64,000 bases of DNA from a virus, in IMG/VR virus record IMGVR_UViG_3300030004_000003, positions 2,893-66,892 of that record. The stretch is one strand, 5' to 3'. A program made the translations under genes and the position numbers. This document shows, piece by piece, positions 1,703 through 64,000 of the stretch; position 1 is the stretch's first letter; every line of letters starts with the position of its first letter. A model generated the notes under the pieces. That model was not told the DNA's origin and made no database searches. It saw only the letters and a program-made list of their open reading frames with translations.

Positions 1703-1723
1703 GTTGACTGATGGCCGCAGGGT

Positions 1724-3946
1724 ATGGCGGTTAATTCCCTGATCTATTGTGATCTCTATCGTGGTGTGGCGTGCAAAAGTTCTGCTGCCGACACGATGAC
1801 GTTTCCTACTTTCGTGGCGGGTGGAAAGATCACCTATGGTCTGCGCTTTCTGGAGTACCAAGGCAGTTATTTTACAGTCGATCAGACTCTTGCGTCGCTT
1901 CGAGTGGCGATGGGTTTGGTGGATGCTCGCCCGGCAACAGGAACCTATCAGTTGCAGGCGGCGTCGGGCATCTCCACAGCCGCCAATACCACGGCCATTT
2001 TACAGTGGAATGCCGTCGCGACGGAAATCACGACGGCATTGAATGCCCTCTCCATTGCCACCGGAAATCCATTCGTTGTCACGGATGTGCCTGGCGGCTA
2101 TGTCGTGAATCGAACAGATGGGAGCGCTATCTCCCTGTCTGTTATTTCCAATACGATGCGTCCCGTTTCTTTCGGACAGATCGAGGCTGCTCAAATCGGG
2201 ACTGTGTGGCAATATGAGGTGAGGCTCTGTCAGGCTCCTCTTGCCTTTACGAATACGGCCGCTCGCGTTGTCCCTCCCGCTCCGGTTATCACGGAGATCC
2301 AGGCAGGTGGGGCCAGTATGGATGGTGTGACGAAGTGGAATGAAATCCAGTCCCTGTCGATTCTCCCATCCTTCCTGGGGACGTACCAACTCAGTCTCGG
2401 CCTTGCAAAGACCGAGTTGCTCGATGTCACTGATGGTGCTTCGCAGCTTCAGGATGCCTTGAACACGATGCTGGCACCTCAAGGTGCCTTCGTCACTGTG
2501 ACCAATCCGACGACGAATGTTGCCAACATTGAGTTTGGTGGATCTCTTGCGGGAATGGGCGTTGGGCTTTTGCAGGTGTCGGTTTATTCGGCTCCTCCCG
2601 GTGATTGGACGTTCTCGCTCGATCTTGGCACCTATGAAATGCTCACCGCTCTTTGGGCGGCCGGTGAAAGTCTGCAACTGGCCTTTGAGGCCGAGGCCGA
2701 TATTTACCTTGATCCTACTGATTTCTCGGCTGGAACCGAGACGGTTAAGCTTTGGAGCACCACGGTTGCTGTAGCCCCGCCGCTCATTACTCCAAATCTG
2801 GAGTCTGTTCCTGAAATCGACTGGGTGCGGCCACCGGCGGATACCTATATTCCTGGCACGACAGATCAGATTCTTATCGGCAATCAAGAGGCTGTTTTGA
2901 TTCCTACTATTGGAGATGGAGTTTCCGATCATTTCCCGATTACTCACAATCTCAATTCTGTCGTTCCTACGGTCAAGGTGCGTCAGACGGCCGCTGGAGG
3001 CAAGCTGCTGAGCGATGAGGCATACACTGTGAATTATGACAGTGTAAATGCGCTCACTATTTATGGTTTGGAATCGTTGATAACGCCCGGCTCGCCTCCG
3101 GCCGTTGATGAGTACACGGTGCTCATTGAGGCTACCGGGCCCGCCTCGGTGTTTCAGACTCATACGCACACCATCGCGCAGATCGTCGGATTGCAGACGC
3201 TTCTCGATGGGTACGACTCCGCCATTTCTGCCTTACAATCCATCCTGCCCACGATCTCAGGCGCAGGAACAACGACGAGCGCCACGGGCATTCCGATTCC
3301 TCTCACTCTGAAGAGTGAGATCCTTGGTTGGCCAGCCTCCGCTGTGGTTCCGGCCGCATCCGCCACGACTGGTTACTCAAGCAGTCAGATGCTCAATAGG
3401 CCGCCGTCTCTCCTTCCTGTTGGATCAGGTGGCATCAACACAGATCGGGAATTATGGCGTGTGGCGATGAATCCGCAGCTTCTGGCGCTGGGTCGGACGC
3501 TACAAATTGACTGGGGTGTTGCCCTCCAGGTGCTTCGTCCAAACTGCGGGATGGAGTATCAGCTTGTGGTGGAGATCGGCACTTATGCGAGTGCTGGCAG
3601 TATGCTGAACATTACTTGGGAGAGCGGGCCTGTCTTCTCACAGCCAATCGTTCTTACCGAGGAGCTGACGGTTCATAGTTTTGGTATCACGATTCCGCGC
3701 GGCATTGTCGGATCTACGGATACACTGCAACTCACGCAACAGCTTTATGGTATTTCCTCTGGGAATAATACTGCTGCACCCACGAGCGCTTCCTTTGCTA
3801 TTCGCTGCCGTCTTATCGGATTGGAAACGGAGCCTTCAAGTGTGCAGCCAGACCCTCGCGGTTGGATCTACCTTGCCGTCGTTCCGAGTCTGACGGCAGC
3901 CACGGGAGTGACGATTGCTCAAGCCCTGGTCGCCACCCCGGCATAG
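1724..3946 (+). CDS. Tail tip/baseplate-like structural protein
   Basis: 740 aa, Thr/Ala/beta-rich, HTHTIAQIVGLQ tail-fibre-type motif, preceded by TTGAC at -20. Confidence 0.6.
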   Translation: MAVNSLIYCDLYRGVACKSSAADTMTFPTFVAGGKITYGLRFLEYQGSYFTVDQTLASLRVAMGLVDARPATGTYQLQAASGISTAANTTAILQWNAVATEITTALNALSIATGNPFVVTDVPGGYVVNRTDGSAISLSVISNTMRPVSFGQIEAAQIGTVWQYEVRLCQAPLAFTNTAARVVPPAPVITEIQAGGASMDGVTKWNEIQSLSILPSFLGTYQLSLGLAKTELLDVTDGASQLQDALNTMLAPQGAFVTVTNPTTNVANIEFGGSLAGMGVGLLQVSVYSAPPGDWTFSLDLGTYEMLTALWAAGESLQLAFEAEADIYLDPTDFSAGTETVKLWSTTVAVAPPLITPNLESVPEIDWVRPPADTYIPGTTDQILIGNQEAVLIPTIGDGVSDHFPITHNLNSVVPTVKVRQTAAGGKLLSDEAYTVNYDSVNALTIYGLESLITPGSPPAVDEYTVLIEATGPASVFQTHTHTIAQIVGLQTLLDGYDSAISALQSILPTISGAGTTTSATGIPIPLTLKSEILGWPASAVVPAASATTGYSSSQMLNRPPSLLPVGSGGINTDRELWRVAMNPQLLALGRTLQIDWGVALQVLRPNCGMEYQLVVEIGTYASAGSMLNITWESGPVFSQPIVLTEELTVHSFGITIPRGIVGSTDTLQLTQQLYGISSGNNTAAPTSASFAIRCRLIGLETEPSSVQPDPRGWIYLAVVPSLTAATGVTIAQALVATPA

Positions 3947-3947
3947 G

Positions 3948-5692: not shown

Positions 5693-5722
5693 TTGGCATG
5701 AGTTGACGGGTGGCGAATGGTT

Positions 5723-8700
5723 GTGATCCTTACCGTTGATCTTGACTCTTTGGCGCTTTCCGCATCTTCGGTGCCTGTTTTAATAGCGGGAAAGGTCAAT
5801 CCCATCTCGATTCGGTTTGTTAGGCACGGAAGATTTCAACAACTACCGGATGGTACGCCGGGGAATGTTTCCCTCACTCGTGGAGGAGTTCTTATTGCGG
5901 GTGGGCTTTCTTACTCCTGGGTAAAAAGCGAAGTTGGCACGACTGCCATCTACACTGTCACATTAGATTGTAACACCACGGAGATTGCGGCCATTTCATG
6001 GGGTTCCTCTCCTTCGTTTCCTTGTTTGCTAACGGTTGATTGGACTGTCGGTGACGCTCCCTTTGAAAGTCAACCACTGCTGCTCAATCTCCTTGCTTCA
6101 AATTTTGAGGGCGATGAATCTGCTCCAACTGCTCTACCGTCCCTAAAGGCGGATGTCTCGGCTGAGTGGGATCCCACTGATAATGTTTATTGGATTACCC
6201 AAGAGAAGGCTCAACAGGGAATTCGCCTAGCCGCCAACGCTCTCTTGCTCCGAGTCAGTGGCGGCTACATTCAGTGGCAGCACGCCGGTGATGCTTCCTG
6301 GAATGATCTTATTGCTGTTTCTTCCTTGGTGGGTGCGCCGGGATCAACCGGAGAGGATGGCACCAATGGCACAAACGGAACCAATGGTTTGTCCGTTAAT
6401 CTTCAGGTCAGCGACGGCTGCATTCAATGGCAACACCCGGGAGATGCCTTCTGGAACAACCTTATTGAAGTTTCCTCTCTTGTTGGTGCAACCGGCCCCG
6501 CTGGTTCTTACAACCAGTCCCTCAACACGACTGATCCCTGTAGCTTTGTCTCGGGTACATTCGGAGGTATTCGAGTCAACACCACATCAAATGCGGATCA
6601 TCCTCTGGTGTGGGACATGGGTGGAAGTGGCGAGCTTTCTATAAATATAGGGGGCACAAAACGAGCCGCTTTGTCTTTCGATGACGCATTCGGACAAGTG
6701 AACTACTACAACGCTACGTCACTTGCATTAATGGCGCTGACGGACAGCGGAGAAGTTCTGCTAGGCCCCTACTATGGCAATAAAGTGATGGTGGATGGGT
6801 CTTCCACTCTTTCTGGTGGATCGTGGTCTATCCTTAATAGTGGCGTTGCAACCTTCATAGAAGGCTCTTTTGCCTATGGCTTGACTTACCTGTACAATGA
6901 TGGCTCTGCCGACATTGCTGGGGGCGCAGCCCACATTGGATCTGATGGTTCTGCCCTCTTTACCTCGATCACCCTTCCTAATGCTACGGCGATCAAGATA
7001 GGGGCTTTTGATAACGGAACAGGTGGAGCTAACGGCCTCGGATTGATATGTTCGGTTGGATACGAACTCAACTGGCAGGGTGGAAGGCTTCGTTCCATAT
7101 ATCAGGGAGACAGCACAGGTACTCCTCAGATGCTCTTCCTTGACTCCCCGTTGTCGATTGGAGTTCAAGGGGACTACCCTGCTTTCATTTTCAACTTGGA
7201 TGGCTCGGCCTCCCTATCAAATAGTCTCCTGACTTTCGGTGCTGATGGCTCCGTAGATGCCGCAGACGGACAGGCCACTATTGACGCTTACGGCAATGGT
7301 CTTTTCCGAAGCATGGGATTCCTTGGAGGCGGTAGCAACGCCCTCTATGACGATGGTGGTCTGCAATATGGCTCTCAAGCTGTGGCGATGGTCGGATCAA
7401 ATGTTTCCAACTTTGTAAATGACATGGGGTATATTACCAGTTGGGGGTATGACCAATCGTTGAATACAGGGGATTCTCCCTCATTCGATAGACTAACCCT
7501 AAACGGTTCCTTAAATATCTATGCAGGGGGTATTGCTATTGGATGGTCTGGCTATGATCACTACGCAGAAATCGACGGCTCTGATGGTTCAGCGTACTTC
7601 GCCCACAACAATTTCCTTATTGATGCCTCTGGAAACTTTGGCTCCTATGGTGGCCTTAGCTGGATCACAGCGGCGGGAAGCGCGGGGTTCGGTGCTGGTC
7701 TAGGTGTTGGCTTTGGGGGTAGTCAGGGTAATGAGGAGATTGGTTGGCAGTATAATGCAGCAATCCTGACGGATGGGTCGGCTCAGTTTGCCAATAATGT
7801 AGCAGGGGTCACGGCTGCGGGGCATCTCTACGGCGCAAACTTCTATTCGATGAATCAGGCAGTGGGAACAACCTCCTCTCCCACTTTTGCAGGAGTCTAT
7901 TTAAGTGGAGGAAGTGAGCTTCATGATTCCAGTGGGCTAAAGTACGGAAGCTCCACGGTTGCAATGCAGGGTATTGGAGTTAGTCATTTTTCTAATGACG
8001 CTGGTTATCTCACTACTGAATATAACTATTTCAATCAACTTCTCAATACAGGAAGCTCTCCAACTTTCGCTGGACTGACTGTCGGAGAGTTTACTGTTGA
8101 TGCTTATGGTAACTTAACCTTGGGTACTGGCGGGTTGACACATCTCAATGCTGATGGATCAGCATTGTTTTCTAACAACTCAATCCTTATGGAGGCTGAT
8201 GGAAACCTATACACTGGTCAGAATCATTCGGGACCATTGAGTAGCCCCGCATTCATTAATCTGGGGAACAGTTATAACTCTGGAACCAGTGCACTAGGAA
8301 GTAAGCTATTCTTCTATACGAATGGAACTGTTGGTAGTACTTTTGCGATAGGTGTTGGCCCAACGAGTGACATGCAGTATCACGCAGGATCATCGGGAAA
8401 GCATGATTTCTACTCTGACGGTACTCTCGTAGGTGAGTTCAGCATTTATGGCCTTAGTGTAGTAGGCAATACCCTTCATACAGATGGTTCAGCTTCATTT
8501 GCTAATGGTTGTGCCACAGTAGACATGGGAGGCAATGCTTCCTTTGCGGGCGGGATGGTGATCGCCAGTTATGATGATGGAGTCAATGTTGGAGATGGTG
8601 CAGCGCAGATGCTGCCCTCTGGGTCGGTTTGCGGAAATGAGTTCCACACCAACAGTGGCAATATCCAACTGAATAACAATGGATCGGCCCTTTTCTCAGG

Positions 8701-9385
8701 TGGTCAAACCCGCATGCAATCTGATGGTGGATTTTTAATTGGAAGTTATGGGATCTACGATGGGGATGCTCTCATCTACCTCAAGCCCGATGGTTCAGCG
8801 TGGTTTGCTAATAATGCCTTTAACATAGGAACTGATGGTACAGTTCAAATACAGTACGATGCCATCAGCTTGAACGGTTCGGATGGGTCAGCGTGGTTTG
8901 TAGGAGGAGGCATAGTAATCGGAAACGTTGTACCGCCCGATGATGACATTACGGTGACCAATGGCATCCAGCTTGGTAGTAGTTACATCTATGATGATGG
9001 TGGTTATCTACACCTCTACAGTGGTGCAGGATCGCAAGTATCAATGTCAGGCGGGGTTCTTTGGGGATCAAGTTACGCAGGGGCGCTAAATCCCGATGGG
9101 AGCGTAATAGTAGATATTGGAGGTAATGGAACTCTTGGCCGTTCTGGTATCGGATCTTTTATATGGGCAGGACTACCTGGAGATGAGGCAGGCTCCTTGA
9201 ACACCGATGGGTCTGCTTCATTTGCAGGAGGACAATCTTTTATCGGGAATGACGGAGGCGCGGGGTTTGGCAATCTACAGATATTCTGGGATGGCTCGGT
9301 TAACCTTGGGGGTGGATCGTCTGGAGTAGGTGCTCTCACTTCCGATGGCACCCACCTCTACTGGATGGGGACCATGATCATCTAA
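5723..9385 (+). CDS. Long tail fibre / receptor-binding protein
   Basis: ~1220 aa Gly-rich; collagen-like GxY stretch; duplicated IQWQH..W.DLI.VSSLVG module; many DGSAxF repeats. Start is ATG 5717 or GTG 5723. Confidence 0.75.
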   Translation: MILTVDLDSLALSASSVPVLIAGKVNPISIRFVRHGRFQQLPDGTPGNVSLTRGGVLIAGGLSYSWVKSEVGTTAIYTVTLDCNTTEIAAISWGSSPSFPCLLTVDWTVGDAPFESQPLLLNLLASNFEGDESAPTALPSLKADVSAEWDPTDNVYWITQEKAQQGIRLAANALLLRVSGGYIQWQHAGDASWNDLIAVSSLVGAPGSTGEDGTNGTNGTNGLSVNLQVSDGCIQWQHPGDAFWNNLIEVSSLVGATGPAGSYNQSLNTTDPCSFVSGTFGGIRVNTTSNADHPLVWDMGGSGELSINIGGTKRAALSFDDAFGQVNYYNATSLALMALTDSGEVLLGPYYGNKVMVDGSSTLSGGSWSILNSGVATFIEGSFAYGLTYLYNDGSADIAGGAAHIGSDGSALFTSITLPNATAIKIGAFDNGTGGANGLGLICSVGYELNWQGGRLRSIYQGDSTGTPQMLFLDSPLSIGVQGDYPAFIFNLDGSASLSNSLLTFGADGSVDAADGQATIDAYGNGLFRSMGFLGGGSNALYDDGGLQYGSQAVAMVGSNVSNFVNDMGYITSWGYDQSLNTGDSPSFDRLTLNGSLNIYAGGIAIGWSGYDHYAEIDGSDGSAYFAHNNFLIDASGNFGSYGGLSWITAAGSAGFGAGLGVGFGGSQGNEEIGWQYNAAILTDGSAQFANNVAGVTAAGHLYGANFYSMNQAVGTTSSPTFAGVYLSGGSELHDSSGLKYGSSTVAMQGIGVSHFSNDAGYLTTEYNYFNQLLNTGSSPTFAGLTVGEFTVDAYGNLTLGTGGLTHLNADGSALFSNNSILMEADGNLYTGQNHSGPLSSPAFINLGNSYNSGTSALGSKLFFYTNGTVGSTFAIGVGPTSDMQYHAGSSGKHDFYSDGTLVGEFSIYGLSVVGNTLHTDGSASFANGCATVDMGGNASFAGGMVIASYDDGVNVGDGAAQMLPSGSVCGNEFHTNSGNIQLNNNGSALFSGGQTRMQSDGGFLIGSYGIYDGDALIYLKPDGSAWFANNAFNIGTDGTVQIQYDAISLNGSDGSAWFVGGGIVIGNVVPPDDDITVTNGIQLGSSYIYDDGGYLHLYSGAGSQVSMSGGVLWGSSYAGALNPDGSVIVDIGGNGTLGRSGIGSFIWAGLPGDEAGSLNTDGSASFAGGQSFIGNDGGAGFGNLQIFWDGSVNLGGGSSGVGALTSDGTHLYWMGTMII

Positions 9386-11775: not shown

Positions 11776-12054
11776 GGTATCAATCTGCCATCTAGCCATG
11801 TGCCAGGTGATCTATTGCATGACCGGCAAGAGGCGCGTGAGGGAAGGGGCGCATTGTCAGGAATGCAATGGATTTCATCATCCCCTCGATGCTGGCACGC
11901 CGCCGCTGATTGCCAGCATCAGGACAGTCGCCCACATGCTTCATCATGACGAGATCTCGGCCCGTGATGCCGCTCTAACGCTCTTTCTGCTGACTGATCC
12001 GCGTTGCGATGAGCCGGAACCTCGTCGGCATGATTGACGAACGGAACTATTGAT

Positions 12055-12465
12055 ATGGCCCGCACAAAGCAAAAACTCATTTTGTTTTCGGAGGATGTGA
12101 TTCCGGAATTTCCAAGCATCAAGCTTGCTGTTTTGAGGGATACGCAAGAATGGGCGCTCGTGTTATACAGGAATGGAAAATGGCAATGCCATGGACGGCG
12201 CGTTCGTATCAGGTGGTGGATCAATCTCTTTCTTCCGTATGACCTTCCAGGACTGAAAGGGCGCTTAGTATCCAAATCCGAATCTGAGCAAGCCCTCCAA
12301 GATATTTCTGATGCTTTCGCTGGCTATAATAAATATCTAGCCAGTTCTCAGCCTCATCAATCTTTTCGACGCAATAAGAAGGCATCTTCTGCTGCGGTGA
12401 AGCCAGAGCGCGGCGATACCGGCGTGTTGCCTCGGGATCGTTCTGTCCGCCACCATCGGAAATAA
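12055..12465 (+). CDS. Hypothetical protein
   Basis: In-frame ATG 12055 preceded by TTGAC at -21 with GATATGGC context. Confidence 0.45.
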   Translation: MARTKQKLILFSEDVIPEFPSIKLAVLRDTQEWALVLYRNGKWQCHGRRVRIRWWINLFLPYDLPGLKGRLVSKSESEQALQDISDAFAGYNKYLASSQPHQSFRRNKKASSAAVKPERGDTGVLPRDRSVRHHRK

Positions 12466-13443: not shown

Positions 13444-13545
13444 GGAATTACAATCTTAACAAATTGTGAAATTGTCAATTTATAAAAAATATGAGAATGG
13501 AAAAAAGATTTGACGCGATTTGAAAAAATGGATTTATTACACGCA
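13443..13545. promoter_or_regulatory. Divergent sigma70-type promoters, probably leaderless
   Basis: TTGACA (minus, 13478) and TTGACG (plus, 13510), each 35 nt upstream of its ATG; AT-rich. Confidence 0.6.
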
Positions 13546-49883: not shown

Positions 49884-49912
49884 AGACTAAGGTTTATCTC
49901 TCACTTTATCAA
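49884..49912 (-). promoter_or_regulatory. Sigma70-type promoter
   Basis: TTGATA-17 nt-TAGTCT, ATG 8 nt downstream of the -10 box. Confidence 0.7.
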
Positions 49913-52300: not shown

Positions 52301-55300
52301 AGCCGTCGCCTGCTCAGATCGAAGCCGGGAACTATGCAAAGAAGCATCTTCGGATCTGCGGGCTCGACCTCTCGATTGAAAACCGAAAAGGGAGTGTCCG
52401 GAGTGGTAAAGGCAAGGATGGCAAAGAATGGCGTATTAAAATGCCGGTCGATTATGGATACATCAAGGGAACGCTTGGCCCTGATGGCGACCATGTGGAC
52501 GTTTTTGTCGGCCCTGATCGGGATCTCACGAATGAATCCCCTGTCTGGGTGGTGAATCAGAAAAAGGATGATGGGAAGACCTTCGATGAGCACAAAGTTC
52601 TCCTGGGATTTCCTGACATTGGGAGTGCCGTGGCGGCCTATCGGAATTCCTACGACATTCCGATGTTTGGCAATCTGGTGAAGATGTCGCTCCGGATGCT
52701 GAAGCTTCAGTTGCGCAATGGCAGACTGTGGCGACCGTTGAAAGAATTTGCAGGATTGCTTCCCAAAGGGTATTCCTTGCCAGAAGTCATTCATGAAAAA
52801 CCCGCTGGTCCAACAATAGGACTCTATGAATATCCTAAGAAAACTCCTCGCTCGCCTGAATACAGTTCCTCAACCGGTTCTCAAGGCAATAACGACCTTT
52901 CCAAAGGAAAGTCCAATCGGGCAGCACCTCGAAAAAGAGAGGCAGGAGTTATCACCATCCCAAGGGAAGGATATTTTGCAGGGCAACTCCAGACCGGCGA
53001 TGTCCCGGATGGTGAACTTCGAGTATTAGCTCACAATGCTCGTCGCGGAGTTCTCAAGCATGAGATTGTCCACAGCATTTTAGATCAGAAAAGGGGCGGC
53101 GTTCCCGACAGCGTGGCGGGATTTGCCAAAGAGGAGTTGGCTGCCCATAGCAAGCAATTCTTGGGAAAGAAATCCCCGCTTCTCGACAGGCCATTATCCA
53201 AACGGCTTGCCTCAGTAATCAGGGGCACTATTGCCAGCACGAAATTAGGAGTCAAAGCAAACGGGATTAAGAAATGGTTTGCGGATCCGTTGACGCGGGA
53301 TCGAGTGGGTATGGCTCTGAAGACTTTCTCCGACCGAACTCCCTACTGCGATCCTCGGCAGTTTCCTGGTGAATCCGCTGCCCCTGTCTCTTCTGAGCGC
53401 CGCGATCTCCTCAAGAGCGGCATTATTGCTACGGGTGTCGCTGGTGGTGCCGGGCTTGCTGGGCTTGCTATGCGAGGATCTGTGAACAAGGCTCAAAAGG
53501 CAGATCTCCTCCGTGACGCTGTGAATAAGATCGTTGCTGCCCGCAAGGGGGCTAAGACCGCCGCACAAGCTGGCGCTGTCGCATCAGCCAAGGGTGCGCA
53601 GGATGCTTCCATTGAGGCTCAAAAGCTCCGCGTCTCCAGGATTCAGGGAGTCAAAAAAACAGATGCGCGTCTCGGTAAAGTGGGAAAATCCCTGGTCAAA
53701 AACGGGGCGCTCACTCCAGGCGAGGCCGCGACGGCTAAAACTGGATTTCGTTCTTCTCATGCTCGTTTGACCGGGTTCTCAGCCCGACTTCATCTTTTCG
53801 ACGCCGCCGTGATCCGTGAGAAGCGTGACGGCCTCTCCAAGGCCAAGGATGCCGCTGTGCTGGCTGGTGGTCTCGGGGTGCTTGGTGCCTCCGCTTACGC
53901 TGGAATCAAGGCCCATGGAATCTCCAAGCTTGTGAAAGGGGAGATTCCCAAGGTATCCCGCGCGATCCGTCGCGCCGTGCCGCCAGTTGCCAAGAAAGCA
54001 AACGATCTTTTGGATGCCGGTAAGGCTGCTGCCGGTCAACTCCAAACCACGGCCAAGGAAGCCAATGAATCGGTTGGTCACTCCACGGCTGTCTATTCCG
54101 ACATCGGAAAACTCTACAAACAGGCAAAAGGTGGCGTCTATAATCTTCTGCATCCGGTGAATACCGTCCGGGAGGTCAAATCGGCCTTCCGGGCGGGGTT
54201 GCGTGGCGAGGAAACCTACCCTACCAAGCCGCGCCCCAAGTGGGCGCTCTCCGCCAAGATAAAGACTCGTCTCAAGGAATTTGCTGATCGTTTGGAGACT
54301 TCCGAAGAGGGCGTTCCTTTAAATGGTCGGGTTGCGCACGATCGGTTTATCAAGCAGATCCATGAGGGTGATCTGGATCGTCGGGACCGCAATATCTCTC
54401 ATGCTGGCGTTGCTGGTGCTCTGACTGGAGCGCTGGTGGCCAAGCCCGGCAAGCGTCTGATCGGCGCGGGTGCTGGTGCCGCTCTTGGTGGTGCCGGTGT
54501 GCTGGCAATCCGTGCCATCACGGATCGTCATCGCGACATCTACGGTGATCGTCCCCGGTGGGCGAAGGATGCTGAAACTCTTCCTGCTGTGGCAGGTGCT
54601 GGTGCTGCGTTGGGGATTATTGGAAAGCGGGTACTCGCGGGCAAGCGTCTGAGTCGCGTCATTCGCCTAAAAACCTTTGATCTTCCCGATGATGATCAGC
54701 CTCCGATGAACCCCGCGTTGAAAGCCGGGCTTACGGGTGCTGTCGCCGGGGGGGTGATGGGATCTCTTCCTGCGTTCAAAGTGGGATCCAAGCTCGCTCC
54801 TTCACTGGGATGGATTGGGGCTGGTGCGGCCGGGATGGGTGCGCTTGTCGGTGGTGGCACCTACATTGGCGATAAAATCCTCGGGCCTGCGAAGCCGAAT
54901 GAAGGCGCTCCTTTTACCAAGCGTGCCGCCATTGGTGGTGCATTGCTTGGAACGGCGGCAGGTGCGGGTGCAGTCCTTGCTGCCAAGAAGATTCCCGCAG
55001 TCTCAAAGTTTATTGATGGCTACGCTGATTTTCGTCCTGTGAATTTCATCAAAAATGCCTCCCTGCCTGCTGCCACGGCGGCTGGTGCCGGGGTTGGTGC
55101 TCTAGTGGGTGCTGATAAGGCTGGTGATGAAGGACAGCAGGTTGATGCGCTCAATTCGATTCAGAATCAGAAAAAGACTTTTGGGCGGCAGGTGAGGGGA
55201 TTGCTCAAAGAGTTTGGCTACTCTGATCAGAGCCGCCGTCAGGATGGGAAATTTCGCAATCCTGTGGCTGGTGCCTTCGGTGTGGATGATGACAACGGGG

Positions 55301-56046
55301 ATGTCTCTGTGCGGCAGGTCGCGGGAGCATTTTACCGCAAAGGTCAAACCATTCACCGATGGACAGGGCGAGGCACCGGGGTTGTCTCCGATGCCGGAAG
55401 CGTGCTCTCAGGCCAGCCTCGTGATCGTGATGCCTCCGGGCGTCCGCGCAAGCGCGAGTGGGAGAAGGCATGGTTTAAGAATGCCCTCGGATCCGCTGCC
55501 GCCGGGGGTGCCCTCTTGGCTGGTGCCCATGTGACTAAGAACACCGCCTGGGGTCGCCGTGTGGTGCAGCCCAAACTCCGTGCTGCCAGCAACTGGGCGG
55601 CAGGGAAAGGCGTGAATCTTCTCTCGGCAAAAATGAAACCTGAATCACTCCATCTGCTCACTCGTCTTCATCTCCTTGACGAATGGGCTGAATATCATGG
55701 CTGGGATGTGCGCGATCCGCGTGGCCGTTCCGCTCGTGTCTTTGCTCCAGGATCTCGCCCTCGTACTCGTCGCGAGAAGGAATGGCACGAAAAGAAGGAT
55801 AACCGCGAGGCGCTCCTCAAGGGTGCCGTCGTAGGTGCTGCCGCGCTCGGTGTGGCTGGAGGCTATGCCGGAACCCGGCTTGCTGGTGGCAAGTCGCTGA
55901 TCCCATCTGCGGTCAAAGGGCTGTTAAAATCGAAGCCGCTAAGTGTCGCTGAAGCGGAGGCTCATCTTGCGGCTGCAAAATCTCGCGAACAAAAAGTCGT
56001 CAATGGTCCATGGCGGGGAACCAAACCGTTGACTCCGGAACAGTAA
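52297..56046 (+). CDS. Large modular head-associated protein: inorganic-pyrophosphatase-like domain, HExxH domain, Gly/Ala hydrophobic modules
   Basis: PSPAQIEAGNY.K..SIEN.KGS.RSG..YGYIKGT.G.DGDHVDVFVG..FDEHKV; HEIVH; internal in-frame start at 53311. Confidence 0.75.
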   Translation: MKPSPAQIEAGNYAKKHLRICGLDLSIENRKGSVRSGKGKDGKEWRIKMPVDYGYIKGTLGPDGDHVDVFVGPDRDLTNESPVWVVNQKKDDGKTFDEHKVLLGFPDIGSAVAAYRNSYDIPMFGNLVKMSLRMLKLQLRNGRLWRPLKEFAGLLPKGYSLPEVIHEKPAGPTIGLYEYPKKTPRSPEYSSSTGSQGNNDLSKGKSNRAAPRKREAGVITIPREGYFAGQLQTGDVPDGELRVLAHNARRGVLKHEIVHSILDQKRGGVPDSVAGFAKEELAAHSKQFLGKKSPLLDRPLSKRLASVIRGTIASTKLGVKANGIKKWFADPLTRDRVGMALKTFSDRTPYCDPRQFPGESAAPVSSERRDLLKSGIIATGVAGGAGLAGLAMRGSVNKAQKADLLRDAVNKIVAARKGAKTAAQAGAVASAKGAQDASIEAQKLRVSRIQGVKKTDARLGKVGKSLVKNGALTPGEAATAKTGFRSSHARLTGFSARLHLFDAAVIREKRDGLSKAKDAAVLAGGLGVLGASAYAGIKAHGISKLVKGEIPKVSRAIRRAVPPVAKKANDLLDAGKAAAGQLQTTAKEANESVGHSTAVYSDIGKLYKQAKGGVYNLLHPVNTVREVKSAFRAGLRGEETYPTKPRPKWALSAKIKTRLKEFADRLETSEEGVPLNGRVAHDRFIKQIHEGDLDRRDRNISHAGVAGALTGALVAKPGKRLIGAGAGAALGGAGVLAIRAITDRHRDIYGDRPRWAKDAETLPAVAGAGAALGIIGKRVLAGKRLSRVIRLKTFDLPDDDQPPMNPALKAGLTGAVAGGVMGSLPAFKVGSKLAPSLGWIGAGAAGMGALVGGGTYIGDKILGPAKPNEGAPFTKRAAIGGALLGTAAGAGAVLAAKKIPAVSKFIDGYADFRPVNFIKNASLPAATAAGAGVGALVGADKAGDEGQQVDALNSIQNQKKTFGRQVRGLLKEFGYSDQSRRQDGKFRNPVAGAFGVDDDNGDVSVRQVAGAFYRKGQTIHRWTGRGTGVVSDAGSVLSGQPRDRDASGRPRKREWEKAWFKNALGSAAAGGALLAGAHVTKNTAWGRRVVQPKLRAASNWAAGKGVNLLSAKMKPESLHLLTRLHLLDEWAEYHGWDVRDPRGRSARVFAPGSRPRTRREKEWHEKKDNREALLKGAVVGAAALGVAGGYAGTRLAGGKSLIPSAVKGLLKSKPLSVAEAEAHLAAAKSREQKVVNGPWRGTKPLTPEQ

Positions 56047-56056
56047 CAAACACTCT

Positions 56057-56599
56057 ATGAAAACATCCGCACCACTCCGTCGCCTCGTTGAGCTCTCGTC
56101 CCGCTGTGTCGGAAAAGAGCTTAATGTAAAAGTCGCACCAAAAACCGCCGTCGTCGCGCCAGGCGGACGCATCGCGATCAAAACTTTCCAGTCTCGCCAT
56201 CGTCTTCGGGAACTCTCGCGCAAGATCGAGCTTGGGTTTTTCAGCCCTACCAAGCAAGTTTCTGTCCAAGGTCAGAATGGCCAGTTCCAGGGCACCCAGA
56301 CAGAGGCCAATCCATCAGGGATCGCTGCTGATACCGCCGTCGTGGGTGCAGGTGCTGTGGGTGCCGGAGCGCTCCACAATGCGGTCATGAACAATTACGG
56401 AACTGGAAGCAAGGTTCCTGGTGAGACGACGGCAGCGAATGCTTACGGCAACGCCGCGCGCAATCTGCTTCCTCCTGCAATTTCTGATTCCGTGGTCCCG
56501 GCTGCGTCCAAAGTCGGGGGGCTTGTGGATACGGCTGGGGCCACCGGAATCGGATCCAAAATCGGAAATCTCCTTAAGAGCCTGCGCGCGGCTGCTTAA
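56057..56599 (+). CDS. Head-associated protein sharing motifs with the large protein
   Basis: RLVELSSR, IKTFQ, LRELS motifs; Gly/Ala segment. Confidence 0.55.
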   Translation: MKTSAPLRRLVELSSRCVGKELNVKVAPKTAVVAPGGRIAIKTFQSRHRLRELSRKIELGFFSPTKQVSVQGQNGQFQGTQTEANPSGIAADTAVVGAGAVGAGALHNAVMNNYGTGSKVPGETTAANAYGNAARNLLPPAISDSVVPAASKVGGLVDTAGATGIGSKIGNLLKSLRAAA

Positions 56600-56916: not shown

Positions 56917-56991
56917 GTCAGGGTGGACAAACGGTAAGTCGCCGGGCTCATAACCCGGAGATTGAAGGTTCGATTCCTTCCCCTGCTACCA
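56917..56991 (+). tRNA. tRNA-Met(CAT), initiator-like
   Basis: Anticodon arm CCGGG-CTCATAA-CCCGG, T arm GAAGG-TTCGATT-CCTTC, A11:U24, encoded CCA. Confidence 0.88.
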
Positions 56992-57296: not shown

Positions 57297-57349
57297 TCCC
57301 ATATCCGATGATCTGCCTTGCGTGATGGTTGACGGATGCCCGAAGGGGC

Positions 57350-58633
57350 ATGGAACCATCCGAAAAATTCTTCGAACAACTCAGCGGCCGTGTTGATTCC
57401 GTCAATGGGGTAATCCACGGAGTCTCGATCATCACAGGGGGCGTGACGGCAAGGGGTCACGATTTGGAGGTTGATATGAAGACCGTGACGCAGCTTTTCG
57501 GCTGCGCTCACAAGATGGGCAAGGTGCCCGTCAAATGGAACCACAAGAGCGGGGCGGATGCCGTGGCCGGGTATCTCGAAAACTTCCGCATTGATGGGCA
57601 GAAGCTTCTCGGAGACTGGCATCTGCTCAAGTTCCACGAGAAGTACGATCAGGCCCTGGAGCTTGCACAACGTATGCCTGAGTGCATCGGCCTCTCCGCC
57701 GCATTTCTCGGCGAAGATGAAAAGAGGGCTGATGGGAAGACGGCTGCTCGGTGTGAGGAGCTTGTTTCCGTGGATGTCGTTGCCAATCCGGCCGCCAATC
57801 CGAACGGGTTTTTCGAGGCGCTTTTCCCCACCGGCGTTGACACGCCGAACAAGAACGAAACGCTTATGCAAACTCAAACTAATCCACAGCAACAGGCGGA
57901 GCCAACCCTCAAGGATGTGCTCGCTGCCGTCACCGCCCTTACCTCGCAAGTCACACAGCAGGGTGAGACCATCGCAGCCCTCCAGGGTGCCTCTCAGGGC
58001 AACCAGCAGGAGCAGGAACTCTCCATTGAGGATCTTCTGACGCTCACTCCCCAGCAGATCGCGCAGTTTGTTCAGGAAGGTCACATCACGGATGAGGATG
58101 CCGCAGGCATCCATGGACTCCAGGCTGAAGCTCTCGCCGGTGGCGAGGGTGGTCAAGAAGGTGGTCACGGAAACGGTGGCGAAGGTGCCGCTGCTGCTGT
58201 TGGCGCTACCGCTGGTGGTGCCGAGTTTGCCAGCCTGCGCAAGCAGGTTCGGGAACTCTCCGCTCGTTTCGAGCGTGAAGATGCCGCGCGGGAAAATGCC
58301 GCAATCGAGCATTATTTCGGTCAGATCGAGACGAAGCTCACGGAGCTTTCGACTCAGAACCAGAAACTTTCCGACAGCAACAAGGAGTTGCAGGTCCGCT
58401 GTGATGCTCAGGCTCAGGCTCTGCGCACCGGCATTCGTCCGGTCGCATTCTCCGCAGAGGGTGCCGCTCTTCATTCCTCGGATGGGAAGCTTCACGAGTT
58501 CGAAGAGCTTGTGAAGAAACACCGGGATGCCGGAAAGACGCCTGCTCAGGCGATCCGCCTCGCGCAAAAGGAAAACCCAGCCGCTCACCGGGATTATTAC
58601 CTCGGAGATGCGCGGACTACCCGCTCGCTCTAA
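57350..58633 (+). CDS. Prohead protease-scaffold fusion
   Basis: ARGHD..VKWNH..IGLSAAF..SVDVVANPAANPNG, then acidic coiled coil; likely nested scaffold start at 57866. Confidence 0.8.
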   Translation: MEPSEKFFEQLSGRVDSVNGVIHGVSIITGGVTARGHDLEVDMKTVTQLFGCAHKMGKVPVKWNHKSGADAVAGYLENFRIDGQKLLGDWHLLKFHEKYDQALELAQRMPECIGLSAAFLGEDEKRADGKTAARCEELVSVDVVANPAANPNGFFEALFPTGVDTPNKNETLMQTQTNPQQQAEPTLKDVLAAVTALTSQVTQQGETIAALQGASQGNQQEQELSIEDLLTLTPQQIAQFVQEGHITDEDAAGIHGLQAEALAGGEGGQEGGHGNGGEGAAAAVGATAGGAEFASLRKQVRELSARFEREDAARENAAIEHYFGQIETKLTELSTQNQKLSDSNKELQVRCDAQAQALRTGIRPVAFSAEGAALHSSDGKLHEFEELVKKHRDAGKTPAQAIRLAQKENPAAHRDYYLGDARTTRSL

Positions 58634-59308: not shown

Positions 59309-60265
59309 ATGTATAACACGACCGACAGCGTTCCACGTCAGGACATCAGCACGCTTCTCATGGAAGCGGTGCATCAGAAAGAGCACTACATCGGCCAGAT
59401 CCTCCTGCCTGTCTATGACAGCCCGAAGGAAGTGGGCCGCTATCCCAAGTTTCGCATCGCCAAAGGGGAGCTCCTGAAGCGTGAGAGTCAGAAGCGCAAT
59501 GCCACGGGCACCTACAACGAGAGCGACGAGAGCTTCGAGTGGGACAGCTACTCGACCGAGGAATACGGTCACGAGAAGCGCGTGGACGACAAGGTGAAGA
59601 AGGAGATGAAAGACTTCTTCGACGCCGAGATGGTCACGGCTGATTTTTGCATGAACAAAGTCATGCTGGATTACGAGCTTGCCGCTGCCTCTGCGATCAT
59701 GGACAGCACTCAGTTCGGAGTGGATGTCGGTTCGGAGCCCTACACCGAGGCCAACCTTGCCATCATGGATGTGCCTCATGACATCAACGCGTCGCTGGAA
59801 GCTCTCTCCGACCTCGGGGAAACTCCCAACACGCTTGTCATCTCCCTGGCGCTCTTCAATCGCATCAAGCGGTCACAAAAGCTCCAGACTTATCTGTATG
59901 GCTTCCTGAACACCACTCAGGGTGGATCCAACATCACCTCCAAGGTGATCGGAGACGCTTTCGGTATCCCGAACGTGGTGATCGCTCGCAAGACCTACGA
60001 CAGCGCCATCAAGGGCAAGACGAACATCGTTCCCGTCTGGGGCAACAACTACATGTTCCTTGGCGATGTCCAAGGAGGCGATTTCATGGCTGGCGGTGTC
60101 GGTCGCTCGATCATCTGGGAGGCAGACAGCGAAGGCGGTCTCTTCACCACAGATCAGTACCGTGACGAGCCTCGTCGTGGTGACAAAATCCGCGTGCGTA
60201 GCAACCGCGTGATCAAGATCATCAACCCGAATGCGGGTCGTCTCATCGGAACTCAGTGGGAGTAG
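59309..60265 (+). CDS. Major capsid protein
   Basis: 318 aa, position, biased codon usage, PNTLVI..IGDAFGIPNV pattern, followed by a terminator. Confidence 0.8.
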   Translation: MYNTTDSVPRQDISTLLMEAVHQKEHYIGQILLPVYDSPKEVGRYPKFRIAKGELLKRESQKRNATGTYNESDESFEWDSYSTEEYGHEKRVDDKVKKEMKDFFDAEMVTADFCMNKVMLDYELAAASAIMDSTQFGVDVGSEPYTEANLAIMDVPHDINASLEALSDLGETPNTLVISLALFNRIKRSQKLQTYLYGFLNTTQGGSNITSKVIGDAFGIPNVVIARKTYDSAIKGKTNIVPVWGNNYMFLGDVQGGDFMAGGVGRSIIWEADSEGGLFTTDQYRDEPRRGDKIRVRSNRVIKIINPNAGRLIGTQWE

Positions 60266-60334: not shown

Positions 60335-60358
60335 ATCAAATTTGCGTTGGGCACGCTA

Positions 60359-60402
60359 AGCTCCCCTGATCGGTTACTCATGGCCGGTCGGGGGAGTTTT
60401 TT
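60359..60402 (+). terminator. Intrinsic terminator after the capsid gene
   Basis: CTCCCCTGATCGGT..GCCGGTCGGGGGAG-TTTTTT. Confidence 0.75.
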
Positions 60403-60433
60403 GTTTGGGGTGTTGACGGGGAGAACATGAGGT

Positions 60434-60787
60434 ATGAATCCGTTTGATGAAGCTATGGCGCTCGCTGATGAGGATGTCTTTGAAGATGTCTCCGAGCCAA
60501 TCATTCTGGGGGGAATCTGCATTCTGGCGTCCGTAGGGCCTCTATCAAGTGGTGAAACGACTGATTCTTATGGTGGCCGTGCTCGCGTCGAATCGCTCAG
60601 GATTGATGTGCGCAAGTGTGTGCTCGCGGAGGCATTGATTTTTTCCGTGCCGGTTGGAACCGGCGTGACGGTTGATCCTGATGCTCCGGTGCCGCGCCAA
60701 TACCGTTTTGTTTTTCAACGCGATCTCGGGAGCTCGCTCGCCCTCTTTTGTGAATCCACGGCAGGTACTGGAAAAGCAGAATTTTAA
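60434..60787 (+). CDS. Head-tail joining protein (FII-like position)
   Basis: 117 aa after the capsid gene; TTGAC at -21. Confidence 0.55.
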   Translation: MNPFDEAMALADEDVFEDVSEPIILGGICILASVGPLSSGETTDSYGGRARVESLRIDVRKCVLAEALIFSVPVGTGVTVDPDAPVPRQYRFVFQRDLGSSLALFCESTAGTGKAEF

Positions 60788-61269: not shown

Positions 61270-61297
61270 TGGCGCGTTGACATTCCGCGCAAGTGAT

Positions 61298-61669
61298 ATG
61301 GCTACTCCAATTCATCGCAGGGGCTCGGTTGACTGGTCTTTTGGCGTCAATAACGGCGAGTCTGCTACCGGCCCTGAGGGCCTTGAAGTTACGGAATTTT
61401 CCGGAGATCGCGAGTATTCGACTCAGATGGATCGGGTGGATGATACGGGCGCTTTGGTCGATGTACTGATCGGTGCGGAGATTCAAAAGGTTTCTGTTTC
61501 CGGAAATGGAGGCACCTCCCTTGTCACGTTTGATGCGCTTGATGCCGACACGCTTTCGCATCCGGTCGCCGGTCTCGGGACGATTTTTCCCGTCAAAGTC
61601 AGCGGCGGTCAATCAAACGAAGACTTCACCAAAGTCACCTTTGAGGGAGCCGGTTCTCCTGATCTCTAA
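61298..61669 (+). CDS. Tail tube-like protein 1
   Basis: Start at ATG 61298 (TTGAC at -21); beta-rich; ends NEDFTKVTFEG. Confidence 0.5.
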   Translation: MATPIHRRGSVDWSFGVNNGESATGPEGLEVTEFSGDREYSTQMDRVDDTGALVDVLIGAEIQKVSVSGNGGTSLVTFDALDADTLSHPVAGLGTIFPVKVSGGQSNEDFTKVTFEGAGSPDL

Positions 61670-62057: not shown

Positions 62058-62870
62058 ATGGCGGATTCTTACTTTCTTTTTGACGATCGGTTTGCTGAGG
62101 CATTTCTGCATCAGCGCAAGCACGTTGTTTTAGGCCGTCGTTTGAAGCCGTTTTCCTATTGGCATAAGCTGCAACTCGAATGGATTAATTCCAAAATCCT
62201 GCTCGGGAATCCCGGTCCATGGGATCTCTGGTTGGCTGTTCGTATCTGTCAAAGCCAGTTTCCGAATCAGGCTCGCCTGCCGGGATCCAAAAAATCTTCT
62301 TGGTGGCAAGTCTGGTGGAATATCGCAAATTATGGCCGTCGGTGGGATCGTGAGACGGAAAAGTTCCGGGAGTATCTCGGCGACTACTGCTCTCCTCCCA
62401 AGCTTTGGGGAGGGCAAGCAAGTGCCAAGCAGCGGCTTGCCGAGGCGTATGATGCCCTCTACGCGCTCACAAATGACTCTGCTGATGCCAAGGAGGCTGC
62501 GAGTTGGCATCGCGCTGCTGAGGCCAAACAGGCTGGAGCTCGTCAGATAGACGATTCACTTGAGGCGGTGGCCTGCTATTGCAAGCGCGGTGGTGGTCCT
62601 GCTGGGGAAGCGTGGAACATGGCGATGGGTGAGTTGCAGTGGATGAACGCCGTCTTTTATCAGATGGATGGTGGCAAATTGGATATTTGGACCCCGGGAG
62701 ACCAGATTCGCTTTGAGAGGCATCTCCTGAAGAGGGCGGCATCGATTGAGGAAATCGCGGAAACCATCCGGCCTCTTCATCCGGACGATTCTCAGGAACT
62801 CCTGAAGGCGCGAGCGGCAGTCGCTTATTGGGAGCGTGTTGTTGTGAATGTTGACGCGGGGGCAAGGTGA
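62058..62870 (+). CDS. Tail assembly chaperone-like protein
   Basis: Directly upstream of the tape measure. Confidence 0.5.
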   Translation: MADSYFLFDDRFAEAFLHQRKHVVLGRRLKPFSYWHKLQLEWINSKILLGNPGPWDLWLAVRICQSQFPNQARLPGSKKSSWWQVWWNIANYGRRWDRETEKFREYLGDYCSPPKLWGGQASAKQRLAEAYDALYALTNDSADAKEAASWHRAAEAKQAGARQIDDSLEAVACYCKRGGGPAGEAWNMAMGELQWMNAVFYQMDGGKLDIWTPGDQIRFERHLLKRAASIEEIAETIRPLHPDDSQELLKARAAVAYWERVVVNVDAGAR

Positions 62871-62871
62871 T

Positions 62872-64000
62872 ATGGCAACCGATCGAGATACTGCACCACC
62901 GCTCGACTTGCTGAATTCGGCAAAAGAGGCGGTTAAGGATACGATCGGACCTCTTGCAGTTCTCACCCTAGGAGCGCAGGCGTACACCTCTGCTCTCTCT
63001 AAATCCGTCCTGGAGGCGCGAGCTCTCCAGTCGGCTCTCACGGCCAGCGCTGGCGCTGAAGCCCTGCGCAGGCAGTTCCAGCAACTCGGCCTCTCGGCCG
63101 GAGCGGCAAAGAGTCAGGTGGAGCAGCTTGCCCGGCTCGCTTCGACCAGTTCTTTCAGTTTTTCCTCCTTGGGTACGGCTGCGAAGAATTTGCAGTCCAT
63201 CGGTGGCGCTTCCGTCAATACCGCTGCCAACATGCGCAAGGTCATGGATGTGGCCGCCGCCACGGGTGCTCCGGTGGAGAATGTCTCCGAAGCCCTTGCC
63301 TCTCTCTATGATCGTCTGAAGAGGGGAGGGGATGGAGCCGCCGCTGCTGCGCAGGAATTGGCCCGCATGGGGGCCATCAGCCAGGATACGGCCGCTCAGA
63401 TTGCGCGGTTCACGGCGGCTGGGGCCAATAGTTCGGCCTCGCTGAAGGTTTTGGAGACAGATCTTGGTAAGGCTAAGGGGGCGAGCGTGGAACTCTCCAC
63501 GACGCTCATCGGGCTGAATCGTCAGCTTGATGGGATGAAAGAGGGGAGTGACGCAAAAATCGGCGCGATGTTCGACGAGGGGGCAAAGGCCGGTCTCCGC
63601 GCTCAGATCGCCTTTGAAAAGGTGAGGGATGTCATGCGGGAGACGGCTGCGGAGAAGATCGCTCCTGTGGTGGGGGCTGTGAATTCCGTCAAGGAGGGAA
63701 TTGGGAATGTTGTCTCCTCCGGTCCAGCGCTTGGGGCGACGAAGAGTCTGACAGGAGGAGCGTATAATTTGGTTGCTGGTGCGACGGTGGCCACTAGCGT
63801 CGGATTGGTTCAGTTTCTCAAAGGTGCAATAACTGGCACAGGTTCAACGTGGGGAAAAGCCAAGGAAATCGCTACTCCGATCATGAAGAGGGTCGGTTCT
63901 GCGGCAGGCAAGATCGATAAATCGCTTCTTGATAACGAGGGTGCCGCTGGGTCCATTTATCGCGGTCTGTCGCGTGCCGTGGAGACGGCATTTTCCAGTG
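62872..64000 (+). CDS. Tape measure protein (3'-truncated by window edge)
   Basis: Ala/Gly-rich helical reading frame from ATG 62872 running to the edge. Confidence 0.7.
   Translation, partial: MATDRDTAPPLDLLNSAKEAVKDTIGPLAVLTLGAQAYTSALSKSVLEARALQSALTASAGAEALRRQFQQLGLSAGAAKSQVEQLARLASTSSFSFSSLGTAAKNLQSIGGASVNTAANMRKVMDVAAATGAPVENVSEALASLYDRLKRGGDGAAAAAQELARMGAISQDTAAQIARFTAAGANSSASLKVLETDLGKAKGASVELSTTLIGLNRQLDGMKEGSDAKIGAMFDEGAKAGLRAQIAFEKVRDVMRETAAEKIAPVVGAVNSVKEGIGNVVSSGPALGATKSLTGGAYNLVAGATVATSVGLVQFLKGAITGTGSTWGKAKEIATPIMKRVGSAAGKIDKSLLDNEGAAGSIYRGLSRAVETAFSS

Follow-up and report, generated by a model that had tools for sequence, protein, structure and literature searches.

The 64,000-nucleotide stretch analysed here (the window) comprises bases 2893–66892 of the 66,892-bp IMG/VR virus record IMGVR_UViG_3300030004_000003, whose terminal repeat measures 127 bp, and carries a short element with the core GTTGAC at a near-fixed distance before many start codons of its packaging, head and tail genes. 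Its gene set, including an integrase (14229–15335, minus strand) together with packaging, head and tail functions, marks the record as a temperate tailed phage. The packaging, head and tail genes occupy approximately 38–40.6 kb and 50.3–64 kb and continue round to 12.5 kb. They include a probable small terminase that begins with GTG at the head of the packaging operon (38110–38778, plus strand), a large terminase (38741–40609), a portal protein of the lambda family (50573–52300), a 1249-residue open reading frame (ORF) with an N-terminal pyrophosphatase domain (52297–56046, plus), the major head protein (59309–60265, plus) and a 1222-residue tail protein (5717–9385, plus); a DnaG-type primase lies at 26134–27450. 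Comparisons rest chiefly on nine related loci, L001–L009, made up of seven viral contigs with portal identities of 56–73% and two loci from metagenome-assembled genomes (MAGs).

A first-pass annotation of this sequence had listed thirteen TTGAC sites before start codons, and every one of their coordinates and distances proved correct on checking, as did the remark that a G nearly always precedes the pentamer (12 of 13 sites, the exception being 12034). Distances are given as offsets, from the first T of TTGAC to the first base of the start codon. The packaging operon opens with the site before the probable small terminase (38087–38112, plus; TTGAC 38088, GTG 38110, offset 22). The head module opens with a site (50282–50305, plus; 50283 to 50303, offset 20) that closes a non-coding gap of about 400 nt in front of an 81-residue gene (50303–50548), the first of the module, and the orthologous site is present in ten of the ten phages compared. 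Within the continuous ORF 52297–56046 lies the site 53289–53313 (plus; 53290 to 53311, offset 21), whose internal in-frame ATG opens a 911-residue head protein; the equivalent ATG starts the long ORF in L001–L005, and stop codons, read by eye, stand directly upstream of it in L001 and L003. A variant with longer spacing (56028–56059, plus; 56029 to 56057, offset 28) precedes a 180-residue gene (56057–56599). The following 427-residue gene (57350–58633) has one site before it (57328–57352, plus; 57329 to 57350, offset 21) and a second long-spacing variant inside it (57836–57868, plus; 57837 to an in-frame internal ATG at 57866, offset 29), from which a nested product of 255 residues would be read. 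Three further plus-strand sites, all at offset 21, precede a 117-residue gene (60434–60787; site 60412–60436, TTGAC 60413), a 123-residue gene (61298–61669; site 61276–61300, TTGAC 61277) and a 743-residue gene that starts at 62872 and runs beyond the window end (site 62850–62874, TTGAC 62851).

At the other end of the window, where the tail genes continue, a plus-strand site at 1703–1726 (1704 to 1724, offset 20) precedes a 740-residue gene (1724–3946), and the upstream TAA stop ends one nucleotide 5' of its G. The 1220-residue tail gene has a site at 5702–5725 (plus; 5703 to GTG 5723, offset 20), with an in-frame ATG close by at 5717 (offset 14) that leaves the true start of this gene ambiguous. 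The site in which A replaces the preceding G (12034–12057, plus; ATG 12055, offset 21) stands before a 136-residue gene, the final plus-strand gene ahead of a minus-strand gene at 12518–13192. The only minus-strand site (45621–45646; 45645 to GTG 45623, offset 22) precedes an 81-residue ORF (45378–45623). Of the thirteen sites, eleven belong to the module of packaging and structural genes; the remaining two comprise one at the head of a minus-strand unit and one variant with longer spacing. In the plus-strand early and middle block between 13 and 38 kb no site precedes any gene start. The annotation had also named three early genes with TTGA(C/T) at 35–37 nt as an internal control, and two of these were recovered with the gene calls used here, at 13545 and 49875 (minus): 13510–13547 and 49876–49912 (minus) place TTGAC or TTGATA 35 and 37 nt upstream of the ATG. 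Such spacing would mean leaderless transcripts from an ordinary promoter, and the −10 regions match poorly.

The anatomy of the signal was drawn from a logo of 41 ATG sites anchored on the ATG, in which TTGAC is invariant by selection. A G lies directly 5' of it in 38 of 41, and the base that follows is G, C, A or T in 17, 14, 7 and 3 sites (C or G in 31 of 41). The spacer between TTGAC and ATG is unconserved and rich in G+C until the start codon is approached, where G occupies positions −4, −3 and −2 in 28, 35 and 26 of the 41 sites, followed by a pyrimidine at −1 in 34 of 41 and by the A at +1. This GGG-Y block (Y, pyrimidine) is fixed relative to the ATG, and its distance to TTGAC varies by one nucleotide either way. 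It is weak in L001, where several sites lack it, and absent at all sites of the most distant relative, L044, in which the spacing is also looser (20–30 nt). The second element at the ATG proposed in the first-pass annotation is accordingly present in most of the clade but not obligatory, and its absence from L044 identifies the core of the signal as GTTGAC plus distance. Upstream stop codons mostly lie 0–8 nt 5' of the G, so that the element fills the entire intergenic gap. Where the spacing is longer, a pyrimidine–purine step, read by eye, is mostly kept at offsets 19–21, and in L008 a GGGT-purine block (GGGT-G) occupies offsets 16–20 while the ATG sits at 34. The resemblance of the upstream box to the −35 hexamer TTGACA is evident, but the logo contains no −10-like motif between box and ATG, positions −12 to −7 being C/G-rich with no conserved A or T. 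The TANNNT box of actinobacterial and Deinococcus leaderless promoters, which ends 6–8 nt before the start, was compared with the same ATG-anchored logo and does not match it.

That the signal departs from expectation can be seen within the phage itself. The count used the genome as a circle, trimmed of its 127-bp terminal repeat. For each of its 92 TTGAC pentamers, every offset from 5 to 80 was checked for an ATG or GTG that begins an ORF of 80 codons or more. Offsets 20, 21 and 22 hold 4, 7 and 2 cases (13 in total) against a mean of 0.55 per offset at the other 73 (Poisson p 2.2e-8), and offset 29 holds 5. The string GTTGAC-N14–16-ATG occurs nine times in the window, seven of these being sites already listed in the annotation, against 1.24 ± 1.03 in 100 dinucleotide shuffles, none of which reached nine. 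Once a 27-bp tandem repeat that had swamped the initial result was masked, an unbiased scan of the window over all pentamers and all offsets ranked TTGAC at 21 fourth (6 against 0.45, p 7.5e-6), a rank that does not by itself survive multiple testing.

Replication in the related phages settles the reality of the signal. When all pentamers and offsets were scanned in L001–L009, GTTGA at 22 came first (23 against 1.9, p 1.5e-17) and TTGAC at 21 second (20 against 1.6, p 1.8e-15). In the seven viral contigs L001–L007 the matching genes carry the arrangement in the form G-TTGAC-N15/16-ATG, with 9, 17 and 4 cases at offsets 20, 21 and 22 (30 cases). Across five whole phage records GTTGAC-N14–16-ATG occurs 8, 9, 9, 6 and 5 times, that is, 37 times on the late-gene strand against none on the opposite strand, with a single match in the reversed control. 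Among the 63 GTTGAC hexamers on the late-gene strand of the phage and the nine loci, 42 lie 20–22 nt and 8 lie 28–29 nt before the start of a long ORF, compared with 1 of 13 associated with a start on the opposite strand. Further metagenome relatives carry the element too, one with a portal identity as low as 38%, so that identities among element-carrying relatives span 38–73%. These include L038 (5826), L041 (6107) and L042 (9978), in which the portal gene itself has the element at an offset of 22–23 and its protein begins M-N-F-L-D; the portal start of the window (50573) is without it, and sites are therefore gained and lost gene by gene. Not all sites across relatives are independent, since L036 duplicates L004, L031–L035 duplicate earlier contigs, and L038, L039 and L041 are mutually near-identical. 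The element is real, conserved across the phage clade, and specific to this clade and to its late, structural module.

A separate observation concerns the hexamer family to which GTTGAC belongs. GTYRAC sites (R, purine) are avoided in coding regions relative to synonymous-codon shuffles, with 1 GTCGAC observed against 10.1 expected, 2 GTTAAC against 5.5 and 4 GTCAAC against 8.3 in the phage, and 4 against 24.5, 0 against 5.4 and 4 against 11.4, respectively, in L001–L009; sense-strand GTTGAC is not depleted. The depletion of GTCAAC, shared as it is with GTCGAC and GTTAAC, looks like avoidance of GTYRAC restriction sites, and the pattern suggests escape from a HincII-type restriction system with functional sites retained. 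For the same reason motif avoidance on both strands proved unusable as an indicator of DNA-level function.

The probable host offers no counterpart. In the phage collection there is no cultured relative, no nucleotide match, and no portal identity above 27%. Among cellular genomes a related portal occurs in just three, all of them Verrucomicrobiota MAGs (labelled Verrucomicrobiia, Akkermansia and Spartobacteria), and the host probably belongs to that phylum. L009, a relative of Akkermansia type, suggests that a related prophage may reside in a host that can be cultured. In these three MAGs with related contigs GTTGAC-N14/15-ATG occurs 25, 17 and 15 times against 10, 20 and 7 in the reversed control, and some of the hits in the first repeat a phage site. 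From the Verrucomicrobiia MAG with a related contig, a 392-kb sample contains 464 TTGAC pentamers, with just 1, 1 and 1 long-ORF starts at offsets 20, 21 and 22, and before 300 candidate starts of the same sample no positional tetramer or pentamer and no Shine–Dalgarno (SD) peak was detected. Ordinary host promoter architecture, the explanation that would have made the spacing commonplace, is not supported by these near-control counts or by the sample, which has no peak at 20–22 nt, and the element is absent from the likely host as a positional signal.

The nature of the start codon constrains any interpretation. Across four groups of orthologues the protein sequence is conserved, through synonymous changes, from the ATG or codon 2 onwards, as in M-A-S-x-E-W-M, where Ala is encoded as GCG, GCT and GCA and Ser as AGC, TCA and TCG, and upstream of the ATG only GTTGAC and GGG are conserved. 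By this criterion of sequence conservation the ATG is the true translated start, so that any transcription start must lie at or before it. A canonical reading of TTGAC as a −35 box, by which transcription would begin ~14 nt inside the ORF and delete the ATG together with codons under protein-level selection, is therefore excluded, in line with what the first-pass annotation had calculated. The −10 hexamer that it would need 16–18 bp downstream of TTGAC is missing too, its position being occupied by codons 2–3 without such a pattern, and a consensus scan of 48–64 kb found no plus-strand site resembling a sigma-70 promoter.

Start regions of the phage fall into three classes. The first comprises 19 genes with a strong SD of the GGAGGTG type, mostly overlapping early genes, with a mean anti-SD duplex of −13.4 kcal/mol, and the second 42 genes with G-poor leaders (11% G, A/C-rich) that have little structure (−3.3 kcal/mol over −25 to +20). 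The third, of 10 TTGAC genes, has 42% G in the 15 nt upstream, a folding energy of −9.7 kcal/mol and a weak SD of −5.0, and it differs from the class without SD at p 6e-5. The weak pairing bears out the earlier remark that most sites lack a canonical SD. Of the two ways in which the other genes load a ribosome, the TTGAC genes show neither. Their first 36 nt of coding sequence are less structured, at −3.2 kcal/mol for 41 TTGAC starts compared with −5.4 for 151 other candidate starts (p 8e-5), a control that includes unverified gene starts. Leaderless initiation is a known third route of translation start, and the lack of either signal combined with an unstructured beginning of the ORF is what a transcript starting at the AUG would be expected to show.

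Two of the sites mark starts nested in longer frames. In 52297–56046 an InPase domain (Pfam, E 7.5e-45) is fused in frame, with no intervening stop, to the large head protein, and in L006–L008 an upstream in-frame reading (K-W-F...) also runs through the 53311-type site; with no stop, the element at 53311 and this continuation, both the pyrophosphatase–head fusion and the shorter isoform from 53311 may be made. The nested start at 57866 (offset 29) is retained in all eight phages that have the gene, in an arrangement reminiscent of protease and scaffold pairs produced from one frame. Its GTT-GAC, encoding Val-Asp at 57837, is kept at the nucleotide level in the same eight of eight while adjacent residues vary, and the 255-residue product has no family match.

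Site positions also follow the units of the late region. An intrinsic terminator of 19 pairs with a T-run (60358–60399, plus) follows the major head gene 59309–60265, and TTGAC 60413 starts 16 nt after the beginning of that T-run; on the minus strand a terminator of 8 pairs with a T7 run (45689–45708) precedes the site at 45645 by 44 nt. These are the two terminators that the annotation had placed directly before sites. A third, of 13 pairs (37570–37602, plus), closes the early and middle plus-strand block upstream of the site at 38088. The succession of terminator and site after the major head gene recurs in L001 (free energy −28.4, site 18 nt on) and L004 (−18.9, 13 nt), compared with −27.6 in the phage itself, and by eye in L007 and L008. 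With sites 57329 and 57837 in front and the terminator 60358–60399 behind, the unit of scaffold and major head protein is bracketed, and the head module begins after the 400-nt gap and a divergent gene with no sigma-70-like plus-strand promoter. The late region also contains a tRNA-Met with a CAT anticodon (56917–56991, plus), with three G:C pairs beside the anticodon loop and an acceptor stem weakened at its top by a G-U pair and a mismatch, both of them initiator-like traits. A tRNA-Met is found in the late region of four phages, the others lying at 21445–21519 in L004, 21001–21077 in L007 and 19989–20065 in L008, where each has an initiator-like 1:72 mismatch. The tRNA of the window may support translation of late mRNAs. 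It is not preceded by the element, and there is therefore no translation-independent example of the element.

Promoter action on DNA, the position of the transcription start and the reading factor are what we infer from this material. The interpretation that we favour, at an even chance of being correct, is that of a compact, phage-specific late promoter from which transcription would start at the ATG or within a few bases of it, giving leaderless mRNA. GTTGAC(C/G) would be the upstream box of this clade-specific promoter, and transcription would begin ~20–21 nt past its first T, at the A of the ATG or at most ~4 nt before it, with GGG-pyrimidine directly before the ATG framing the start site across most of the clade. 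The majority of head, tail and packaging units would be expressed as mRNAs with no leader or almost none, and sites at longer spacing (24, 28–29 and 34 nt) would give leaders of 3–14 nt with no SD. The RNA polymerase would be that of the host, directed by a phage factor not recognisable by sequence. A spacing of 20–22 nt with a tolerance of one nucleotide is what a protein ruler gives, and supports promoter action. A pyrimidine at −1 and an A at +1 form the usual start-site dinucleotide of bacterial RNA polymerase, and the L008 site with GGGT-G at 16–20 and ATG at 34 fits a transcription start set by its distance from GTTGAC, with an ATG that may lie 0–14 nt downstream. The operon logic, with terminators 13–18 nt upstream of sites and a modular position of the sites, likewise fits a promoter, and the element is kept at 11 late-module positions despite the avoidance of GTYRAC elsewhere. 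The fuller proposition, in which the host polymerase is re-tooled by an unrecognised phage protein to read GTTGAC ~21 bp from the start with no −10 element, so as to transcribe dozens of leaderless late units whose translation an initiator-like tRNA-Met aids in a host otherwise reliant on unstructured leaders, is less likely than not. We know of no sigma-70-family geometry this close, ~21 bp being 14 bp closer than any known one allows.

Several observations weigh against a compact promoter. We know of no bacterial holoenzyme that works from a box near −19 when a −10 element is missing, and a G+C-rich spacer would be hard to melt. The conserved 29-nt class and the 20–30-nt spacing in L044 mean that the ATG need not be at a fixed point, so that the ruler is not absolute. 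At gene 57350 the A and U of the start codon are base-paired in a hairpin (57335–57350), and the seven orthologues, this gene included, each have their own hairpin of 4–8 bp ending in or beside the start codon (free energies −5 to −12, z-scores −1.3 to −3.8). RNAalifold found no common register among these seven, whose sequences differ between phages, and the hairpins are therefore individual. A hairpin of this kind needs the spacer in the RNA, so that some functional transcripts at this gene would not be leaderless. It is not a general property of the element, since the mean z-score of −0.52 over 41 TTGAC-to-ATG intervals is driven by the seven orthologues of gene 57350, the other 34 averaging about −0.13. 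Added to this is the silence of searches for transcription machinery: six-frame searches of five phage genomes gave no Sigma70_r2 match in any and two sub-threshold Sigma70_r4_2 matches, neither in this phage; the T7-type RNA_pol family PF00940 gave none in the five, the search's control genomes being likewise silent; no ORF of at least 150 residues contains a DxDGD motif; and the large ORFs scanned produced no polymerase match.

The two proteins that the first-pass annotation had put forward as sigma-like readers fared worse than the element itself. One, of 257 residues (49102–49875, minus), lies divergent from the first head-module site and adjoins it in this way in every phage where it is found; the other (15470–16243, plus), also of 257 residues (245 in the database), has a C-terminal stretch resembling a helix-turn-helix by eye. 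Each is kept in four of the five related records and belongs to no known family. Neither shows detectable sigma similarity: Pfam gave no match even at E up to 10 across 6 and 10 family members, PHROG returned nothing, PDB sequence profiles contained no sigma match, and the six-frame searches were as described, although a very divergent sigma-like protein would escape all of these. AlphaFold2 models reached mean values of the predicted local distance difference test of 50.7 and 56.6, too low for a fold search. The only hint is for 49102–49875, where a language-model atlas gave a weak lead to a Sigma70_r2 cluster (score 0.85, 90 shared features), which lies below the tool's bar. Scans for viral contigs carrying the 49102–49875 family or the major head protein returned only known contigs. 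The protein at 49102–49875 is thus a candidate trans-factor by position only, and that at 15470–16243 a weaker candidate. Of the compact late promoter as first proposed, the element has emerged as real, specific to module and clade and absent from the likely host as a positional signal; its sigma candidates are unsupported and its second element is weakened.

A signal acting in RNA keeps about a quarter of the probability, on account of the hairpin at gene 57350, the 29-nt sites, the spacing in L044 and the missing sigma factor or polymerase. UUGAC, ~16 nt before the AUG, would bind a phage or ribosomal factor that brings ribosomes to late cistrons lacking an SD within long polycistronic transcripts, or would mark a cut between GGGY and AUG that creates leaderless mRNAs once transcription is over. 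Such a role would explain why the element is tied to start codons and not to operon starts, preceding even the internal in-frame starts at 53311 and 57866, and upstream stops usually 0–8 nt away are as in tightly coupled cistrons. The start-occluding hairpin 57335–57350, with counterparts in six orthologues, needs a transcribed spacer. The mRNA leaves the 30S subunit at about −21 to −17, which is approximately where the motif lies. The start-associated sequences of Cluster K mycobacteriophages, moreover, are read as a translation signal by their authors (PMC3203893). However, the element is missing from the major head gene at 59309, where the need for translation is highest, and present at low-copy tail genes, and strong terminators 13–18 nt upstream would starve a translational signal of template. 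The phage's other SD-less genes show the reverse of this G-rich, structured spacer, and agreement with the core of the bacterial −35 consensus would be a coincidence for an RNA signal. No RNA-binding factor or nuclease was recognised among the ~40 ORFs scanned.

An operator function is unlikely. In the manner of the stoperators of mycobacteriophage L5, GTTGAC would be bound as DNA by a single helix-turn-helix protein that, at the head of late units, silences late genes in the lysogen by obstructing RNA polymerase, or else activates them. The phage is temperate by its integrase (14229–15335, minus), and among the related records one is classified as a provirus; the sites are asymmetric, oriented with transcription and placed in very short intergenic gaps; and two clade-restricted proteins outside any family are conserved together with the motif. 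Against this, six or seven conserved bases are few for such a protein when TTGAC is abundant in the host (464 in 392 kb), and an operator has no need for a ruler of 20–22 nt or for GGG-Y at the ATG.

A two-box promoter of ordinary sigma type, with GTTGAC as −35, GGG-Y-AT as −10, a 12-nt spacer and a start ~8 nt inside the ORF, is improbable. Group 3 sigma factors, the stress and sporulation type, have the consensus GTTTAA, 12–15 nt, GGGTAT. Both blocks and their spacing of 11–13 nt resemble it, with G in 28, 35 and 26 of 41 sites followed by Y-A-T. The variation of one nucleotide in either direction between the blocks, with GGG-Y fixed to the ATG, likewise speaks for this reading. The transcript, however, would lose the ATG and the next 2–3 codons, which are under protein-level selection, with a second Met nearby in only two of the four orthologous groups, and GGG-Y is missing at several L001 sites and all L044 sites. 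Chance, or a by-product of codon usage or composition, is refuted to the point of being negligible: the mere fourth rank of TTGAC at 21 in the window-only scan speaks for it, whereas probabilities of 1e-15 to 1e-17 in relatives, the strand asymmetry of 37 to 0 with one control match, 50 of 63 hexamers associated with starts and shuffles that never reach the observed count speak against.

Two features stand apart from these questions. L001, L004, L008 and L009 have a CCGTCCG-like word, sometimes present twice, in the intergenic stretch from which the 49102–49875 homologue and the head module diverge. The word lies 10–40 nt 5' of the site in front of the small gene just ahead of the portal and may be an operator; the window shows no obvious copy. 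The 27-bp tandem repeat mentioned above (21849–22423, 21 copies, 88% matches) lies within a 546-residue gene (20979–22619), where it corresponds to a 9-residue protein repeat, and this gene also matches Macro, DUF7666 and DUF3060.

Were the compact promoter confirmed, it would add a new architecture to the promoters of bacterial RNA polymerases, and we know of no earlier phage in which practically all of the structural module is expressed from leaderless mRNA; were the RNA signal confirmed instead, it would be a new SD-independent start signal. Either way the element provides a simple, testable handle on expression in phages of the Verrucomicrobiota, for which hardly any transcription data exist, a predictor of start codons for annotation that extends to nested in-frame starts, and a candidate orthogonal expression element.

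Full-text searches of the literature found no description of this element, and comparison with known systems shows partial likenesses. TTGAC equals the first five bases of the sigma-70 −35 consensus and could be read by a helix-turn-helix of the region-4 type, but it lies 14 bp too close to the sole possible start site and has no −10 partner. Late promoters of the T4 type consist of a single 8-bp element at −10, read by a phage sigma-like protein at variable distance from the start codon. They resemble the present sites in being numerous single-box promoters, scattered in late genes and used by the host polymerase, and differ from a box that here would lie near −19, at a fixed distance to the ATG. 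The L5 stoperators, 13 bp long and distributed genome-wide, share with GTTGAC an asymmetric, transcription-oriented placement in short intergenic gaps of a temperate phage, and have no fixed ruler to start codons. In poxviruses the late initiator contains an ATG and is used by a virus-encoded RNA polymerase. The late promoter of phiKZ is, according to PMC4666361, TATG with G as +1, a short late initiator that includes the ATG and overlaps the transcription start, and it offers a precedent for a start codon within a late promoter. Both of these systems rely on viral RNA polymerases and have no box at −21, whereas here GGG-Y lies beside the ATG and is dispensable in a distant relative. The nearest published parallel is the start-associated sequences of Cluster K, described in PMC3203893 as 13-bp sequences with an SD core, 3–7 bp from the start in the non-structural arm, and of unknown function. 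As portrayed there they are short asymmetric repeats in one orientation directly before starts, with a preference for ATG, present cluster-wide, across different families and absent from the host genome; the same traits are found here in the strand count of 37 to 0, the 41 ATG sites and the 3 host pairs from 464 TTGAC. GTTGAC is not itself such a sequence, since both consensus and distance differ: the present element has a core of 6–7 bp, lies 15–16 bp from the start, includes no SD and is restricted to genes for structure and packaging. It is a phage-specific late expression signal that stands outside each of the families compared.

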